Source: Faecalibaculum rodentium | GTDB taxonomy: Bacteria > Bacillota_I > Bacilli_A > Erysipelotrichales > Erysipelotrichaceae | Length of the DNA stretch: 32,000 nucleotides | Assembly (NCBI RefSeq): GCF_001564455.1 | Contig: NZ_CP011391.1 | Span: forward strand, 210,001-242,000 | Direction: 5' to 3' | Shown: positions 25,806 through 32,000 of the stretch, piece by piece | Position numbering within the stretch: the stretch's first letter is position 1 | Layout of the letters: every line of letters starts with the position of its first letter | Notes under the pieces: generated by a model | Told to the model about the DNA's origin: nothing | Databases searched by the model: none | The model's input: the letters and a program-made list of their open reading frames with translations, nothing else | Position numbers and translations under genes: made by a program

Positions 25806-25833
25806 TTGACAACGCTTTTTTTGTGTCTATACT
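25806..25833 (+). promoter_or_regulatory. Sigma-70-type promoter for the LevR-type activator gene
   Basis: TTGACA (25806-25811), a 16-nt spacer, then TATACT (25828-25833), about 20 nt upstream of the AGGTGA Shine-Dalgarno site and the ATG at 25853. Confidence 0.5.
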
Positions 25834-25852: not shown

Positions 25853-28558
25853 ATGCAGGAAATGATAGAAAAAGCAATACAGGAACATACACAAAACGGA
25901 CAGTTCAGCCGTCTTTCCGTGGCGGAACTGTCCTCGCAGCTGAGTCTTCCCAAAAGCCGCGTCACCCAGGTACTCCAGCAGCTGCTCAAGGCCGGCACCG
26001 TTGTCCGCGCAGGGCAGAAGCCGGTCCTGTTCCTGGACCGCAGCGTGCTGGAAGAGACGTATGGCACGGCCATTGAAGGGGATACGATCCGCAACCTGGA
26101 CCAGTGGCTGGCGGCGCAGACAGACCAGGAGCAGGACTTTGACAGACTGATTGGCCACGATGGCAGTCTGTCCTCGCTGGTGGAACAGTGCAAGGCGACC
26201 GTGGCCTATCCCCCCAACGGTCTGCCCCTCATTCTGACGGGAGAAACCGGCACGGGCAAAAGCATGATCGCGGGCCTTGCCTATGAATATGCCCGCAACC
26301 ACGACCTCGTGAAGCCGGAGAGCCGCTTTGTGGCGGTGAACTGCTCGGAGTATGCGAACAACCCGGAACTGCTCACGGCCAATCTCTTCGGCTATGTCAA
26401 GGGAGCCTTCACCGGCGCAGACCAGGATACCCCGGGGCTGCTGGAACTGGCGGACGGTGGTGTGCTGTTTCTGGATGAAGTCCACAATCTGAAGGGAGAA
26501 TGCCAGGAAAAGCTCTTCCACTTCATGGACCAGTCGATATATCACCGCATGGGTGACAACAAGACCTGGTACACATCCAGCGTACGGCTGATTTTTGCGA
26601 CAACCGAAGACCCGGAAAAGGTGCTGCTCAAGACCCTCCAGCGGCGGATCCCCATGAAGCTGACGGTTCCCAACCTGGCCGCCAGGGGCAATTACGAAAA
26701 ACTGCAGATCATTCTGTCCATGTTCGCCAGAGAGGAAGAGCGCCTCAAGGTGCACATCCAGCTCAGCAGCAGCGTCATCCAGCTGCTGCTGTCCTACCCC
26801 TTCCCGGAGAACATCGGCGGCCTGAAAAGCGCGATTCAATCCAGCTGCGTAAATGCCCTCTTTCAGACAGACGAAGAGAAAGTCATGCGCATTGGCCTGA
26901 AGGATATACCGGATTCCGTCATCCAGTATTCGGCGCTGGAAACACTGATGAAGCCCCGGGAACTCACCTGGCACGGCATCGAAGAACTTCGGCATGACCT
27001 GGTGAATGTCCGCACTCCGTTCAGCTTTTTCGAATCGGTGCTGGAAACGCTGGAAACCACACAGGATTTTGAATCGGATTTCCGGGCCATTCAGAAAACG
27101 GTGCTGCATCATTTCAAACGGAGTCTCCGTAAGGCAGATTTGACCCCCTTTGAGACAGCCTTTCTGACCATTGTGCAGGACAGGTGCCGCCAGTACCATC
27201 TGGAGCTCCCGGAAAAAGACCGGCAGCTGTATACAACAGCCTTTGTGGAACTGCTGTCATTGCCCCAGGGCATCGATTTGCTTCTGCAGTCCAGAGCAAA
27301 GCAGGTGGAAGAAGTCATGAACCGTCTGCGGACAGAGGCCTTCAAGTACTTTTCTCTGGTGACGGAAATCCGCCAGGAGGTCAGGGAGCGACTGGAAACA
27401 GACCTGAATCCGCTCCAGTGCCTCATCATGACCGTACTGGCTGCCAGGGCTGGCCAAAGCCAGCCCGCACCCCGGCGGATGGGGGTGATCCTGGCCCATG
27501 GGGAATCCAGTGCCAGTTCCATGGCCATGTGCGTCAACCAGTGGCTGGAGACCCATGTATTTGACGCGATCGACATGCCCCTGTTTGTGAGCCAGGAAGA
27601 AATCAGCCGCCAGCTCAATGACTGGCTCCGGAAAATGGAGGGCATCGAGGAACTGTTTCTGCTCGTGGACCTGGGCAGTCTGGAGCAGATTTACCGCAAT
27701 CTCAACATCCGCAATGTGAACATCGGCATCATCAATTCCCTGAGCCTGAAACTGGCCCTGTCGGTGGGACAGGACATCCGCAACCAGACGCCCATGGAGA
27801 AAGTGTTTGAGCGGGCAAAGGCGCTCTCGAGCATCGAGTACCACATTGAGCGCAACCGGGAGAAGCCCAGGATGATCATCTGTTCCTGCGCCAGCGGCCT
27901 GGGGGTGGCGGAAAAGCTCCGGGGTGTCATTGTGGATTCCCTGCCGGAAGACAGCGACATCCGCGTCATGACCTATGACTACAACACCCTGCAGCAGGAA
28001 GGCATGACGTCCCCGGTGTTTGAGGAAAACCAGGTGATCAGCATCGTGGGGACACTGAAGCCGGAGGAAATCACGGTGCCTTTTGTCGCCCTGGAGGACC
28101 TGATCCTGCAGGAAAACACGAATCGGTTTGATGACAGCCTGCGGCCGTACATGGAGGCGGAGGAGATGCGGGTGTTCAAGAAAAACATCGTCAAGAATTT
28201 CTCGCTCTCCAACATCATGAATTCCCTGACGATCCTGAATCCCGCCAAACTGCTGGAACATGTGGCGGATGCGATTGACCGGCTGCAGAACCGTCTGGGT
28301 GTCAGTCTGGGCAACAACACCTGTTTCGGTTTGTATGTGCATGTGAGCTGCCTGATCGAGCGCCTGGTCATGAACCGGGGCATCGAAGTCTATGGCAATG
28401 CGGATGCCTTCCGTCTGGAGCAGCAGGACTTCATTCAGGCGGTGGATGACTCCTTTGCGGATGTGCAGAAATTCTACGGCATCCGGATCCCGGTGGAGGA
28501 AACAGGCTACATGTATGACTACATCAAAAACGATCCCAATTACAAAAAGCGTGTCTGA
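25853..28558 (+). CDS. Sigma-54-dependent PRD-containing transcriptional activator (LevR/GfrR type)
   Basis: 901 aa. N-terminal wHTH, then a sigma-54 AAA+ module (GETGTGKS, the GAFTGA loop as VKGAFTGA, and LFLDEVH). This is followed by a PRD, an EIIA(Man)-like segment (GVILAHGESSASSMA), an EIIB(Gat)-like segment (MIICSCASGLGVAEKL) and a second PRD. Confidence 0.9.
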   Translation: MQEMIEKAIQEHTQNGQFSRLSVAELSSQLSLPKSRVTQVLQQLLKAGTVVRAGQKPVLFLDRSVLEETYGTAIEGDTIRNLDQWLAAQTDQEQDFDRLIGHDGSLSSLVEQCKATVAYPPNGLPLILTGETGTGKSMIAGLAYEYARNHDLVKPESRFVAVNCSEYANNPELLTANLFGYVKGAFTGADQDTPGLLELADGGVLFLDEVHNLKGECQEKLFHFMDQSIYHRMGDNKTWYTSSVRLIFATTEDPEKVLLKTLQRRIPMKLTVPNLAARGNYEKLQIILSMFAREEERLKVHIQLSSSVIQLLLSYPFPENIGGLKSAIQSSCVNALFQTDEEKVMRIGLKDIPDSVIQYSALETLMKPRELTWHGIEELRHDLVNVRTPFSFFESVLETLETTQDFESDFRAIQKTVLHHFKRSLRKADLTPFETAFLTIVQDRCRQYHLELPEKDRQLYTTAFVELLSLPQGIDLLLQSRAKQVEEVMNRLRTEAFKYFSLVTEIRQEVRERLETDLNPLQCLIMTVLAARAGQSQPAPRRMGVILAHGESSASSMAMCVNQWLETHVFDAIDMPLFVSQEEISRQLNDWLRKMEGIEELFLLVDLGSLEQIYRNLNIRNVNIGIINSLSLKLALSVGQDIRNQTPMEKVFERAKALSSIEYHIERNREKPRMIICSCASGLGVAEKLRGVIVDSLPEDSDIRVMTYDYNTLQQEGMTSPVFEENQVISIVGTLKPEEITVPFVALEDLILQENTNRFDDSLRPYMEAEEMRVFKKNIVKNFSLSNIMNSLTILNPAKLLEHVADAIDRLQNRLGVSLGNNTCFGLYVHVSCLIERLVMNRGIEVYGNADAFRLEQQDFIQAVDDSFADVQKFYGIRIPVEETGYMYDYIKNDPNYKKRV

Positions 28559-28575
28559 AGCGGCACGCTTTTTTT
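28548..28575 (+). terminator. Terminator overlapping the activator gene stop codon
   Basis: AGCGTG (28548-28553) pairs with CACGCT (28564-28569), followed by TTTTTTT. An A-run upstream makes it potentially bidirectional. Confidence 0.55.
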
Positions 28576-28682
28576 GTCCGGGTGCCGATGACGACGGACC
28601 GGGGTCGATTCGCCAAAAAAAACGCGAAAAACCGCAGGAAAACCAGCGGACTGTCCGGCAAAAGACGGAAAAACCGGCAGGA

Positions 28683-28698
28683 TGGCACGGAACTTGCT
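28683..28698 (+). promoter_or_regulatory. Sigma-54 -24/-12 promoter box P1 (distal)
   Basis: TGGCAC-ggaac-TTGCT fits TGGCAC-N5-TTGCW exactly and is followed by GGTATGGAAGTGA. Confidence 0.6.
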
Positions 28699-28782
28699 GG
28701 TATGGAAGTGACGGGCAGCCTCCGGCACCGGCGGATATGGATCCGAAGAAAATACAGAAAAATTCTTCGGAAACATTGAAAC

Positions 28783-28798
28783 TGGCACAGAGTTTGCT
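28783..28798 (+). promoter_or_regulatory. Sigma-54 -24/-12 promoter box P2
   Basis: TGGCAC-agagt-TTGCT, followed by GGTGTGGAAGTGA. It lies exactly 100 bp downstream of P1. Confidence 0.6.
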
Positions 28799-28878
28799 GG
28801 TGTGGAAGTGAACCCGCCCGCTGCATATAGGCATCGGCCACCAGGTTCCCGGAAAAACCACACCGGGCTGAACGGGAC

Positions 28879-28894
28879 TGGCACAACCTATGCT
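28879..28894 (+). promoter_or_regulatory. Sigma-54 -24/-12 promoter box P3
   Basis: TGGCAC-aacct-ATGCT (GG and GC dinucleotides correctly spaced, one deviation at -15), followed by GGTATGAAAGTGG. It lies 96 bp downstream of P2. Confidence 0.5.
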
Positions 28895-28939
28895 GGTATG
28901 AAAGTGGACGCACTCACGGCTTTGCCGCACAGGATGCGG

Positions 28940-28987
28940 CCGGATTCAGAGGATTTCGGAAAAAACATCCGGATTCTCTGAATCCGG
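28940..28987. repeat. Perfect 12-bp inverted repeat (24-bp spacer) with a nested 7-bp hairpin, abutting P4
   Basis: CCGGATTCAGAG (28940-28951) is the reverse complement of CTCTGAATCCGG (28976-28987). A third CCGGATT copy at 28969-28975 can pair with 28981-28987 instead. The last 3 nt overlap the CGGCAC -24 element. Confidence 0.85.
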
Positions 28988-29000
28988 CACGAACCTTGCT
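28985..29000 (+). promoter_or_regulatory. Sigma-54 -24/-12 promoter box P4 (proximal, PTS operon promoter)
   Basis: CGGCAC-gaacc-TTGCT, followed by GGTATGAAAGTGA. It lies 106 bp downstream of P3. The -12 element ends 37 nt before the EIIA ATG and upstream of its AAAGGAGG Shine-Dalgarno site. Confidence 0.75.
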
Positions 29001-29037
29001 GGTATGAAAGTGAAGGAAAACAAGAAAGGAGGTCCAT

Positions 29038-29463
29038 ATGCGGAACATTATTCTGGCATCTCATGGAGAGTTCTCAAAGGGACTGAAGGATTCAGTGAGC
29101 ATGATCGTCGGCGACCTGGCCGATCCGATCCGGACATACAGCCTGTATCCCTCCTGTTCCCCTGCGGACTACATGGAAGAAATGACGAAGGAGATCCTGG
29201 CACATCCGGAGGACGAATATGTCTTCCTGTGCGATGTGAAGGGTGGCAGCGTGCACAGCGCCGTGTCCCGCCTGTGCAGCCACAGAAACGTGGTGGTCTA
29301 CAGCGGCACGAACATGAACCTGGTGCTCGATCTGCTGCTTTCGACACCGGAGTCCCTGTCGGGAAACACCGAAACCCAGGACAGGCTCATCGCCTCGGGC
29401 AAAGACGGCATCGAGGTCCTGGATCACAGCCGGCTTGAAGCCGGGGAAGAAGAAGACTTTTAA
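29038..29463 (+). CDS. PTS mannose/fructose/sorbose-family EIIA component
   Basis: MRNIILASHGEFSKGL contains the phosphorylatable His in the SHG context. 141 aa. AAAGGAGG lies 6 nt upstream. Confidence 0.9.
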   Translation: MRNIILASHGEFSKGLKDSVSMIVGDLADPIRTYSLYPSCSPADYMEEMTKEILAHPEDEYVFLCDVKGGSVHSAVSRLCSHRNVVVYSGTNMNLVLDLLLSTPESLSGNTETQDRLIASGKDGIEVLDHSRLEAGEEEDF

Positions 29464-29475
29464 GGAGGAACGAAC

Positions 29476-29946
29476 ATGATCAAAAAACTGCGCGTGGATC
29501 ACCGGCTGCTGCATGGACAGGTTGCCTTTTCCTGGACGAGCGCACTGAACGTGGACTGCATTCTGATTGCCAACGATTCCGTCATGAAGGACGAACTGCG
29601 CAAGACCACCCTCAAGATGGCAAAACCCAACGGCGTGAAGCTGGTGATGAAAAACATCGAAGACAGCATCAAGGCCATCAACAGCGGCGTGACGGACAAA
29701 TACAAGCTCTTCATCGTGGTGGAAAGCATCGCCGATGCGGCTGCGCTGATCAATGGCGTGGAGTCTATCCGGGCACTGAACCTGGGCGGCACGAAGGCCA
29801 CGGACAAAACCCGGAACATTTCGAAGGCCATGAACGTGACCCCGGAAGAAGAAGACATCCTGAAGAACCTGGTGGACAAGGGCGTCGACGTCACCATCCA
29901 GATGGTGCCGGAAGATACGGCGGTACCGGTCATGAAGGCTCTGTAA
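29476..29946 (+). CDS. PTS mannose/sorbose-family EIIB component
   Basis: LRVDHRLLHGQV N-terminal signature of EIIB(Man/Sor). 156 aa. AAGGAGG lies upstream. Confidence 0.9.
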   Translation: MIKKLRVDHRLLHGQVAFSWTSALNVDCILIANDSVMKDELRKTTLKMAKPNGVKLVMKNIEDSIKAINSGVTDKYKLFIVVESIADAAALINGVESIRALNLGGTKATDKTRNISKAMNVTPEEEDILKNLVDKGVDVTIQMVPEDTAVPVMKAL

Positions 29947-29991: not shown

Positions 29992-30777
29992 ATGCTGATA
30001 CAAGCGATACTGCTCGGTCTGGTTGCCATGCTCGGCAACGCCGAATACCTCTTTGGCACCTGCCTGCTCTCCCGTCCCCTGATCATGGGCACGCTGACAG
30101 GCATCGTGCTGGGCGACATCGAAGCCGGTGTCCGCATTGGCGCCACCATGGAGCTGGCCTTCATGGGTGCGTTCTCCATCGGGGCAAGCATTCCCCCTGA
30201 AATGATTTCCGGCACGGTCCTGGGCACGGCGTTTGCCATCACCACGGGATCCGGCCCGGAAACGGCCCTGGCCATTGGCCTGCCGGTGGCTTCCCTGGTC
30301 CTGCTGGCGAAGAACTTCGGCATGGTCTTCATTCTGCCGCCCTTTGTGCACAAGGCAGATGAATGTGCGAAGAACGACAACATGCAGGGCATTGCCGTGG
30401 TGCACTACCTGGCCGGTTTCTTCGGTGTGAACCTGATCATCGGCCTGTGTGTGGGAATCGGCTACTATGTGGGGTCTCCGGCGGTCGAGGCCTTCCTGTC
30501 CATCATTCCCGAATGGATCTCCAAGGGTCTGGAAATCACCATGGGTCTGCTGCCGGCAATCGGTTTCGGTCTGCTCATGAAGATGATCATGAACAAAGCC
30601 AACGCCTGCTTCTTCATTCTCGGATTCGCAATGAGTGTGTATTTCAACCTGCCGGGTACCGGCATTGCCATTCTCGGTGCGATTCTCGCCATTGTACTTA
30701 CACAGATCAAGCGGTCGCAGACCATGCAGACGGCTGTCGCACAGGGAGGATACACAGATGACGACGAAGACTTCTAA
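29992..30777 (+). CDS. PTS mannose/fructose/sorbose-family EIIC component
   Basis: 261-aa polytopic membrane protein with MLIQAILLGLVAMLGNAEY... typical of EIIC(Man). Its position in the operon also fits. Confidence 0.9.
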   Translation: MLIQAILLGLVAMLGNAEYLFGTCLLSRPLIMGTLTGIVLGDIEAGVRIGATMELAFMGAFSIGASIPPEMISGTVLGTAFAITTGSGPETALAIGLPVASLVLLAKNFGMVFILPPFVHKADECAKNDNMQGIAVVHYLAGFFGVNLIIGLCVGIGYYVGSPAVEAFLSIIPEWISKGLEITMGLLPAIGFGLLMKMIMNKANACFFILGFAMSVYFNLPGTGIAILGAILAIVLTQIKRSQTMQTAVAQGGYTDDDEDF

Positions 30778-31579
30778 GAAGCTGGAAAGAAAGCAGCTGA
30801 TGTCCGTGTTCTGGCGTTCATTCGGCCTGGAATGGGACTGGAACTATGAACGGCAGATGAACATCGGCTACTGCTACTGCATGCTGCCGGTGATCAAAAA
30901 GCTCTATGACGATCCTGCCGAGCAGGAAGCGGCGATGAAACGTCACCTGGAATTCTTCAATACCACCCCGCAGCTGGCGACCCTGATCCTGGGCATCACG
31001 GCGGCGATGGAAGAACAGAACGCGAATGATCCGGATTTCGACACGCAGTCCATCAATGACGTGAAGGTGTCCCTGATGGGGCCCCTGGCGGGAATCGGCG
31101 ACTCCTTTATCTGGGGCACGCTGCGGATCATTGCCACGGGTGTGGGTCTGTCCCTGGCGACACAGGGCAACATTCTGGGTCCCATCCTGTTCTTCCTGAT
31201 CTTCAACATCCCGGCACAGGGCCTGCGCTACTACCTCATGGGTGCCGGCTACAAGCTGGGAAGCGGCTTCCTGGCCACGCTGCAGAAAAGCGGCTGGATG
31301 GAGATGCTGACCTATGGTGCCTCTGTCCTGGGCCTGACGGTGATCGGGGGCATGACGGCACAGAATGTGGCCATCAATGTGCCTCTGGCAATCGGCGCAG
31401 GGGAAGAAGCGACGACCATCGGCGATATCTGCAACACAATCATGCCGGGGATCCTGCCGCTGCTGTTCACCTTCGGCATCTACTACCTGCTGAAGTTCAA
31501 GAACGTGAAAACCACGACGCTGCTGGTCGTCTTCATTCTGATTGGCTTCGCGGGCGCTTTCTTCGGCATCCTGGGATAG
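30758..31579 (+). CDS. PTS mannose/fructose/sorbose-family EIID component
   Basis: The ATG at 30758 follows GGGAGGA. FWRSFGLEWDWNYERQMNIGYCY is the EIID(Man) N-terminal signature. It overlaps the EIIC 3' end by 20 nt. The track start at 30635 is an upstream out-of-context extension. Confidence 0.9.
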   Translation: MTTKTSKKLERKQLMSVFWRSFGLEWDWNYERQMNIGYCYCMLPVIKKLYDDPAEQEAAMKRHLEFFNTTPQLATLILGITAAMEEQNANDPDFDTQSINDVKVSLMGPLAGIGDSFIWGTLRIIATGVGLSLATQGNILGPILFFLIFNIPAQGLRYYLMGAGYKLGSGFLATLQKSGWMEMLTYGASVLGLTVIGGMTAQNVAINVPLAIGAGEEATTIGDICNTIMPGILPLLFTFGIYYLLKFKNVKTTTLLVVFILIGFAGAFFGILG

Positions 31580-31664: not shown

Positions 31665-32000
31665 ATGATGAAATTCAACGAACAGGAAAAAATCGACAGC
31701 GTCAAAGGCGCGCTGGCACTGCGTCCCCAGATCGAGGAAATCGTGGACGGCATCTGCGAAAACGGCTACAAAAACATCGTGTGGCTGGGCATCGGCGGCA
31801 CCTGGGCGAGCGCACAGCAGGCGACGGTGCACATGAAGGAAAAAACCGGCATCGAGACCTGGGCGGAAAACGCAGCGGAATACCTGACGACCGGCAACAA
31901 ACGGATCGGCGAAGGCAGCGTGGTGATCACGTCGTCCGTGACGGGCAACACCATTGAAGTGGTGGAGGCCGTGAAGAAGGCAAAGGAAGCGGGCGCGACG
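31665..32000 (+). CDS. SIS-domain protein, partial (fructoselysine/glucoselysine-6-phosphate deglycase-like, FrlB/GfrE-type); continues beyond the window
   Basis: Hand translation gives MMKFNEQEKIDSVKGALALRPQIEEIVDGICENGYKNIVWLGIGGTWASAQQA...VVITSSVTGNTIEVVEAVKKAKEAGAT. It has SIS phosphosugar-binding motifs (GIGGT, SxSGNT). AAAGGAGGA lies 8 nt upstream. It is absent from the ORF track because no stop lies within the window. Confidence 0.75.
   Translation, partial: MMKFNEQEKIDSVKGALALRPQIEEIVDGICENGYKNIVWLGIGGTWASAQQATVHMKEKTGIETWAENAAEYLTTGNKRIGEGSVVITSSVTGNTIEVVEAVKKAKEAGAT

Follow-up and report, generated by a model that had tools for sequence, protein, structure and literature searches.

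A conserved array of sigma-54-type promoters between a LevR-type activator gene and a mannose-family phosphotransferase operon in Faecalibaculum rodentium

The subject of this study is a 32-kb stretch of the Faecalibaculum rodentium genome (NCBI RefSeq assembly GCF_001564455.1, contig NZ_CP011391.1, positions 210,001 to 242,000; hereafter the window, with positions counted from its first letter). Within it, an array of four sigma-54-type promoter boxes lies between the gene for a LevR-type enhancer-binding protein and an operon for a mannose-family phosphotransferase system (PTS). Activators, promoters and PTS operons of this type are already known; what appears not to have been described before is a conserved, copy-number-variable sigma-54 promoter array inside a self-contained module of rpoN (the sigma-54 gene), levR and PTS genes. 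From sequence and conservation we consider it probable that the four boxes are real promoters, which would give nested transcripts and multiply or shape the LevR-dependent output.

Four promoter units in one intergenic region

The intergenic region that holds the array is 479 bp long (28559-29037) and separates the gene for the 901-aa activator from that for EIIA-Man. It contains four YGGCAC-N5-WTGCT boxes on the plus strand, TGGCACGGAACTTGCT at 28683, TGGCACAGAGTTTGCT at 28783, TGGCACAACCTATGCT at 28879 and CGGCACGAACCTTGCT at 28985, which we call U1 to U4. These positions, and the box-to-box spacing of 100, 96 and 106 bp, are those given in a preliminary description of the window made from the sequence alone. 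Motif counts and the matrix scan below refer to the 32-kb window and cover both strands where stated. The pattern YGGCACNNNNNWTGCT occurs four times, always within the array, compared with a mean of 0.13 in shuffled sequences (0/100 reached four), and chance matches are thereby excluded. The GG and GC doublets lie exactly 10 bp apart in 4/4 boxes, and these invariant positions are kept despite the ATGC of U3 and the CGGCAC of U4.

Each box is trailed by GGTRTGRAAGTGR, and the block GCTGGTATGRAAGTGA (up to 3 mismatches) is restricted in the window to these four places, as the preliminary description had claimed. The CGGAAA motif that it had placed before each box is likewise present 15-29 nt upstream: it begins at 28666, 28768, 28850 and 28957, or 17, 15, 29 and 28 nt 5' of the boxes, with ~0.5 occurrences expected per 600 nt. 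A repeat finder assigns the four units to one 56-nt family with 61-71% identity, in keeping with the earlier proposal that the promoter and its start region have been iterated as a unit. Tandem Repeats Finder reports nothing at the array; units only 61-71% alike are too diverged for it, and this is not evidence against the array.

A weight matrix built on 36 boxes from relatives alone, with Faecalibaculum sequence excluded, recovers exactly five sites on both strands of the window (64 kb): the promoter of rpoN (33.5 bits), U1 (32.6 bits), U2 (29.4 bits), U4 (27.3 bits) and U3 (22.4 bits). The next-best site scores 9.3 bits and the background lies at -41 +/- 11. Judged by sequence, the four boxes are sigma-54 promoters, and U1 outscores the gene-proximal U4.

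All four boxes are oriented on the plus strand toward EIIA, with predicted leaders of about 329, 229 and 133 nt for U1 to U3 and of 27 nt for U4. U1 (28683-28711) is a full sigma-54 promoter unit, consisting of TGGCACGGAACTTGCT and GGTATGGAAGTGA, with a predicted start near 28709; U2 (28783-28811), with a predicted start near 28809, is also a full unit. The weakest unit is U3 (28879-28907), which has ATGC in its -12 region, ends in GTGG and has a predicted start near 28905. The proximal unit, U4 (28985-29013), begins with CGGCAC, and from its predicted start near 29011 the leader runs to GGAGG and the ATG at 29038. On the 5' side of U1, on the same strand, lies a stretch rich in A-tracts (28614-28682; A8, A5, A4, A4, A5) that carries CGGAAAAAC at 28666.

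Relative to the -12 GC, GGTATGGAAGTGA covers positions from about -11 to +3 and so takes in both the melting segment and the start site. The module's rpoN promoter has the same layout and tops the scores of the matrix trained on PTS boxes, and for this reason the flanking block is, in sequence terms, a part of this clade's sigma-54 promoter and no separate element. The preliminary description had taken conservation of the block as an argument against chance matches, and the boxes are indeed no set of chance matches; what it called a non-consensus block is the -11 to +3 part of the promoter, common to the rpoN promoter. Among boxes from 21 loci, the 29 non-proximal and 21 proximal copies have a common consensus, TGGCAC-N5-TTGCT tGtaTa.AAGTGaa. 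The CGGAAA motif is the local version of an A-rich tract found ~10-25 nt 5' of the boxes in relatives (A fraction 0.5-0.67), and takes the form CGGAAAAAC in the window. RNA polymerase alpha subunits contact UP elements in this region, and a UP-like or bending role for the tract is conceivable.

Conservation and copy number among relatives

Relatives were gathered by a genome scan with the activator, by protein search with contig look-ups and by a metagenome scan with the extended box; loci are given here by their L numbers. The closest named relative, L001, is an uncultured Faecalibaculum metagenome-assembled genome whose activator is 92% identical. Activator identity is 56% in Dubosiella newyorkensis and Erysipelotrichaceae OPF54 and ~42-44% in Thomasclavelia and Breznakia. 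Nearly all relatives, on Erysipelotrichaceae-like contigs, carry rpoN on the minus strand, the activator gene, the boxes and EIIA-B-C-D, usually with SIS or other sugar-phosphate enzyme genes.

The preliminary description had named a neutral duplication, with no sign of selection on the upstream copies, as the outcome that would undo its reading. Between the window and L001, the 29-nt cores of U1, U2 and U3 are identical at 27/29, 26/29 and 23/29 positions (76/87 in total, 87%), whereas the spacers S1-2 and S2-3 are 64% and 58% identical, with indels (90/147 in total, 61%; Fisher p=1.4e-5). The core differences fall mainly in the free N5 positions. U4 matches at 28/29 positions, and the A-tract-rich stretch before U1 is poorly conserved (46/81). 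For the same pair, levR third-codon-position identity at identical residues has a mean of ~0.78. Between Dubosiella and OPF54 the levR third-position identity is ~0.45, which is saturated, yet the boxes are ~87-94% identical. All four boxes are kept in two Faecalibaculum species and in four further metagenome contigs; in the second species they are conserved box for box, with two of the three spacers decayed. Because the cores are far better conserved than the spacers, these alignments demonstrate, as far as comparison of sequences can, that purifying selection maintains the upstream boxes, and they speak against a neutral repeat and strengthen the reading of an iterated promoter unit given in the preliminary description.

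Copy number among relatives, a question that the preliminary description had raised, varies from 1 to 6 between the activator gene and EIIA. Many human-gut contigs (e.g. L136, L212, L011, L210) have one box; two are found in L002, L003, L006, L009, L012, L146, L188, L199 and L211, three in L008, L010 and L163, four in the window, L001 and the four Faecalibaculum metagenome contigs, five in L005 and six in L166. The Dubosiella locus carries two. Box spacing in relatives ranges over 55-107 bp (L008 has twin 55-bp units), and helical phase is not conserved.

Two of these loci have lost the box nearest the operon. In L166 (11883-12435), six intact boxes lie in nearly identical 67-bp units, which points to recent tandem duplication, and a seventh, gene-nearest copy reads TAGCTC...TTGCA, with the invariant GG lost. 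In L163 (7125-7450), three good boxes are followed by a gene-proximal copy in which TTAC replaces TTGC. By their sequence, the operons of L166 and L163 would be drivable only from upstream copies, and these dead proximal copies provide the best available indirect evidence for working non-proximal promoters. The best reading of the whole series appears to be that box number evolves by birth and death, including loss of the gene-nearest copy.

A dead copy may also be found at the other end of the window array. The intrinsic terminator of levR, a hairpin plus T-run at 28544-28580 on the plus strand (inverted repeat, terminator scan, fold -20 kcal/mol, z -3.5), holds the remnant of a box, CGGCACGCTTTTTTTGTCC, which is decayed in both the window and L001 and gives no matrix score. 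Relatives with arrays have their first box merged with the levR terminator: its -24 element is supplied by the 3' arm of the hairpin and its N5 spacer by the T-run (e.g. L002, 7680-7730; L008, 5915-5960, AAAAGTGTGCCagcaaTGGCACACTTTTTGCT). The remnant in the window looks like the decayed counterpart of this first box, and the window array is, by its sequence, an old and diverged set of four plus a dead terminator remnant.

Some relatives differ in the DNA between levR and the boxes. L001 has ~135 bp extra between the levR terminator and U1 (7720-7900), absent from the window. In L172 (~2420-2600) and L203 (~3880-4010), a single-box PTS operon occurs without levR directly upstream; the junction in L172 lies inside the terminator T-run, and in L203 the 3' end of the activator gene is ~4 kb away. 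This would mean that the activator site lies elsewhere than directly before the operon, unless the two assemblies are rearranged or chimeric.

How the array could work, and alternatives

The sigma gene of the module itself lies behind a sigma-54-type promoter, TGGCATAAATCTTGCT followed by TATTTATGAGTGAAGGAGG (25768-25783, minus strand), recognized both by the matrix from relatives and by conservation. It is the highest-scoring site of the window and is kept in 11/12 loci examined (window, L001-L003, L005-L010, L012). The rpoN promoters of module loci have the layout TTGCT-N2-WATA-N3-NTGA with the ribosome-binding site immediately after, and the predicted rpoN start is only a few nt 5' of that site. 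A sigma-54 promoter in front of rpoN implies that the gene is positively autoregulated inside the module, a prediction from its sequence.

On the reading that we favor, the array would have been born by repeated tandem duplication of one promoter unit, the copies then being maintained by selection. That unit would have combined TGGCAC-N5-TTGCT with an A-rich tract on its upstream side and, after the box, an A/T-rich segment for melting and a start site. Sigma-54 holoenzyme would form a closed complex on each box, for which a spacing of at least 55 bp would give room, and the PTS-controlled LevR, once on as the PTS signals substrate, would open several of these closed complexes. Nested transcription would start near 28709, 28809, 28905 and 29011, and the output from one activator would be raised or reshaped. 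Given that the module's sigma gene stands behind a sigma-54 promoter, the array may be seen as the output stage of a small self-amplifying circuit; the benefit would then be gain, and sigma-54 may be dedicated to this operon. Binding of the holoenzyme requires only the -24/-12 region, and the conservation of the upstream boxes extends beyond this need, through the start site, which argues that the upstream copies also open and initiate.

Several points weigh against this reading. That each box fires is something we infer from sequence. Many relatives carry a single box, so the array is not essential, and U3 is both the weakest and the least conserved of the four (22 bits; 23/29 in L001). Part of the consensus shared by proximal and upstream boxes reflects common descent of the copies. 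The transcripts from U1-U3 would have leaders of 133-329 nt that include a hairpin of -44 kcal/mol, and transcription from these boxes would have to pass downstream closed complexes, so their contribution could be limited. Finally, no LevR site emerged from a comparison of 11-mers (one mismatch, both strands) in 10 loci between the region upstream of rpoN and 5' of levR and that of the levR 3' end and the array, in which only promoter elements recur.

A site embedded in levR could have shown up as an island of synonymous-site conservation toward the 3' end of the gene, but no clear one was seen. In relatives whose intergenic regions measure 97-130 bp, there is no space beyond the terminator, the boxes and the A-rich spacer. 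The upstream copies or the GTATGGAAGTGA block were considered as a LevR enhancer and rejected, as single-box relatives have no upstream copy and the rpoN promoter carries the same block.

The spacer before the proximal box, S3-4 (28908-28984, plus strand), is unusually conserved, with 72/77 positions (94%) identical to L001 compared with 58-64% for the other spacers. It contains CGGAAAAAAC at 28957 and a hairpin at 28939-28988, and its predicted fold has -44 kcal/mol (z -6.8); the sole stem difference between the window and L001 is an A to G, which in RNA still pairs as G-U. A palindrome of 19 bp without mismatch, CCGGATTC-TCT-GAATCCGG (28969-28987), reaches into the -24 element of U4 and occurs only once in the window, and a third copy of CCGGATTC stands at 28940. 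The palindrome or hairpin could be an operator or an RNA element.

The preliminary description had suggested that long structured leaders might be read from the upstream promoters through hairpins between the units, a proposal that holds for some lineages and not as a general property. Hairpins in the spacers, with A-rich loops and a 3' arm that often abuts the -24 element, reach significance in Faecalibaculum, L166, L006 and a single spacer of L005. We rejected them as a general feature (mean z -1.5, absent in seven lineages). An Rfam scan at E up to 10 returned only sub-threshold chance matches, for instance to miRNA and snoRNA models (best E 0.7), and a structured RNA leader or riboswitch was dropped as an explanation given the absence of a credible Rfam match and the lack of conservation of the hairpins across lineages.

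Other readings of the array differ mainly in what they ask of the upstream boxes. These might act as a loading platform or sink that holds or titrates scarce, self-regulated sigma-54 and sets the threshold of the switch, with only the proximal box being productive. We regard this as unlikely, although sigma-54 closed complexes are stable without activator, an established property of the family, and although rpoN lies in the same module behind a single box and hence competes with the array; the long structured leaders of U1-U3 also look sub-optimal for expression from these boxes. Conservation from -11 to +3 would be unneeded for binding alone, however, and in L166 and L163, with their dead proximal copies, the upstream copies alone could drive the operon. 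The higher score of U1 relative to U4 is a further difficulty. Alternatively, each copy could be a separately controlled promoter with its own input, the palindrome over the U4 -24 element serving as a repressor operator that U1-U3 escape. The strong conservation of S3-4 relative to the other spacers, the uniqueness of the palindrome in the window and the differences in hairpins from unit to unit would all fit such an arrangement. Yet the palindrome is confined to Faecalibaculum, the spacers of AT-rich relatives with arrays are simply A-rich and hold no such feature, and no protein that might bind it came to light; we think this explanation quite improbable.

The neutral-leftover view, in which one box matters and the rest are decaying passengers, has in its favor the variable copy number, the dead copies at the window terminator and at the proximal positions of L166 and L163, and the fact that single-box relatives function. 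It is nevertheless very hard to reconcile with the contrast between upstream cores and spacers, which holds across genera with saturated synonymous sites, and with the retention of all four boxes in two species and four further metagenome contigs; we give it only a slim chance. Scarcely any probability, in our judgment, attaches to the idea that the boxes are not promoters at all, and instead constitute a site for another DNA-binding protein (e.g. a LevR enhancer), a transcribed RNA element or a mobile repeat. The failure of the 11-mer comparison across 10 loci to find a separate LevR site, and the inverted repeats that often abut the boxes, would be expected under this idea. Against it, the invariant positions are exactly the sigma-54 GG and GC with a free N5, single-box relatives have no upstream copy to act as an enhancer, Rfam offers no credible match, and in metagenomes the extended box is almost confined to this gene context.

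A dispersed repeat was rejected on the same metagenome scan, in which the extended box is almost always found in an rpoN-levR-PTS context. A small number of unrelated contigs, L142 among them, depart from this. In this human-gut contig (2216-2331), and also in L155, L171, L179 and L185, two sigma-54-like boxes 87 bp apart lie directly 5' of an Hsp70 (dnaK) gene and 3' of a gene for an outer-membrane beta-barrel protein, a setting that has no relation to the PTS module.

Taking the reading of four working promoters one step further, it is possible, if rather doubtful, that the array sets the gain of a minimal self-amplifying sigma-54 circuit. The sigma factor, serving a single operon, would be produced from its own sigma-54 promoter, and one activator assembly would serve the pre-loaded closed complexes in turn. 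Box number (1-6), which changes quickly through duplication and decay, would tune how gut Erysipelotrichaceae take up Amadori compounds, in threshold, burst size or bistability. If this were true, it would provide a natural case of one enhancer protein driving many promoters, and of the evolution of promoter copy number as a regulatory dial.

Module genes, known systems and arrays elsewhere

The sigma factor, activator, array and operon all lie within about 8 kb, and rpoN, the activator gene, the array and a mannose-family PTS operon with a SIS gene make up a self-contained module. The open reading frame of rpoN (sigL) occupies 24523-25758 on the minus strand, with the Pfam domains Sigma54_AID, CBD and DBD and an RpoN-box-like RRAIAKYR; its start is likely the ATG at 25740, which is preceded by GGAGG. 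It scores 272 bits against NCBIfam rpoN_sigma, slightly under the cut-off of 277. rpoN and levR are divergent, and the 94-bp region between them holds, on opposite strands, the rpoN sigma-54 box and a sigma-70/A-type promoter of levR, TTGACA-N16-TATACT (25806-25833, plus strand; 11/12 matches in the promoter scan), of which both TTGACA and TATACT are conserved in relatives.

The LevR/GfrR/DagR-type enhancer-binding protein (25853-28558, plus strand) has a Walker A motif at residue 130 and GAFTGA at residue 184. Its AAA+ domain (Sigma54_activat, 1e-38) and one PRD (1e-8) lie above Pfam thresholds, and a TrmB-type helix-turn-helix falls under the cut-off. Among NCBIfam models DagR fits best, although its 473 bits fall short of the cut-off of 1400; one homologue, 44% identical, bears the annotation "regulator of gfr operon", and some homologues carry PF03610. 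Downstream on the plus strand follow the genes for EIIA (29038-29463), EIIB (29476-29946), EIIC (29992-30777) and EIID (open reading frame 30635-31579, likely starting near 30770), matching Pfam EIIA-man, PTSIIB_sorb, EII-Sor and EIID-AGA, and then a SIS-domain gene of deglycase or isomerase type (31665-32000; Pfam SIS) that is truncated by the window end. Relatives have 1-2 SIS genes after EIID (two in L005), and some have Amidohydro_2 or BtpA genes in their place. With a SIS gene after EIID, the PTS operon is classed by gene content as gfr-like, that is, of fructosamine type.

In the levanase operon of Bacillus subtilis, LevR and sigma-L act at one -12/-24 promoter with a defined upstream activating sequence. 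The present locus resembles it in having an AAA+ activator with GAFTGA and a PRD that adjoins a mannose-family PTS operon behind TGGCAC-N5-TTGC. Unlike the levanase operon, it has four promoters and no recognizable activator site, and rpoN is adjacent with its own sigma-54 promoter. The sigma-54 of lactobacilli and Listeria has essentially a single mannose-family PTS operon as its target, reached by way of a LevR-type activator (ManR); in the present module rpoN, levR and the PTS genes lie clustered, which suggests a like dedication. To our knowledge, rpoN clustered with its sole visible target, a sigma-54 promoter on rpoN and a promoter array have not been described for those circuits. Tandem sigma-70 promoters, such as rRNA P1/P2 and the early A1-A2-A3 promoters of phage T7, give nested transcripts and a higher or differently regulated output, and share with our array the layout of several same-direction promoters before one transcription unit. 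They fire without an ATP-dependent activator, in contrast to sigma-54 promoters, which are silent until remodeled; how a single activator attends to several closed complexes is therefore a problem posed by the sigma-54 array and not by sigma-70 arrays.

The gfr operon of Enterococcus, Salmonella and clostridia comprises the activator GfrR, PTS EIIABCD and SIS-type deglycases for fructoselysine and glucoselysine, and our locus has the same order of activator, EIIA-B-C-D and then SIS gene(s). GfrR-gfrABCDEF is listed as a sigma-54 regulon in Clostridiales, and the clostridial regulon reconstruction gives single sigma-54 promoters with one or several activator sites (PMC6615313), unlike the multiple promoters of the present locus. 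The cel operon of Bacillus thuringiensis and Clostridium acetobutylicum is likewise a PTS operon controlled by a PRD-type sigma-54 activator, CelR; in B. thuringiensis a single cel promoter is combined with three CelR sites (PMC10864463), so that multiplicity resides there in the activator sites and here in the promoter. The dga and mpt systems, too, work like the present locus, each combining a PRD-type activator with a -24/-12 promoter ahead of a PTS operon. The Erysipelotrichia are reported to be poor in activators, and rpoN autoregulation has been predicted in that class (PMC12316311). Open-access full text was searched for sigma-54 promoters in tandem, in pairs or in larger numbers, and nothing relevant turned up, although earlier mention elsewhere is possible; the word "tandem" is absent from three sigma-54 regulon surveys (PMC6615313 and PMC12316311 among them).

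The array raises the questions of whether one activator assembly can serve several closed complexes, whether neighboring complexes help or block one another and why extra copies are kept. Sigma-54 promoters are the bacterial promoters closest to enhancer-dependent eukaryotic ones, in that an ATPase bound elsewhere remodels the closed complex, and in the natural cases of which we know a lone promoter is paired with one or more activator sites. With 1-6 copies in natural variants of the array, evolution has in effect already made a deletion and addition series. Faecalibaculum and Dubosiella are prominent mouse-gut commensals, and since the system would control a fructosamine-type PTS in both, it bears on nutrient competition in the gut.

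Arrays of sigma-54-like boxes are found elsewhere as well. When viral contigs were scanned for pairs of consensus boxes 54-84 bp apart, at least 120 matches came up, with <1 expected by a rough estimate; these viral arrays have no downstream block of the kind seen in the present locus. L016, L029, L032, L049 and ~40 similar phi29-like contigs (~11 kb) have 2-5 perfect TGGCACG-N4-TTGCT boxes with a 58-bp period; these face inward and lie within both of the terminal inverted repeats, at ~60-180 nt from the contig ends. L016 encodes DNA polymerase, terminase, connector and major head protein, and an Illumina adapter at the start of its contig points to a genuine genome end. In L046, L097, L020, L121, L117 and L113, 6-11 boxes are packed densely head to tail at 18-28 bp (41 bp in L117); L046 has ten boxes at 1963-2250, and L097 has eleven at 3289-3630 on the minus strand of the locus, with mixed spacings of 18-64 bp. 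Periods of 18-28 bp are too tight for independent promoters. In L045, L107, L120 and L126 the boxes form palindromes, TGGCAC-N5-TTGCTA(N)GCAA-N5-GTGCCA. The dense and palindromic viral boxes could be a sigma-54 decoy or sites of another protein.

In the window itself, GC content is lower at 3000-9000 and 15000-17000 (0.44-0.48 vs ~0.57 elsewhere). These stretches hold an IS1595-family transposase (6159-7193), an AAA_14/DUF4143 protein (4020-5363) and a Schlafen AlbA_2/HATPase_c_4 protein (15639-17117), and are probably mobile or defence-related insertions.

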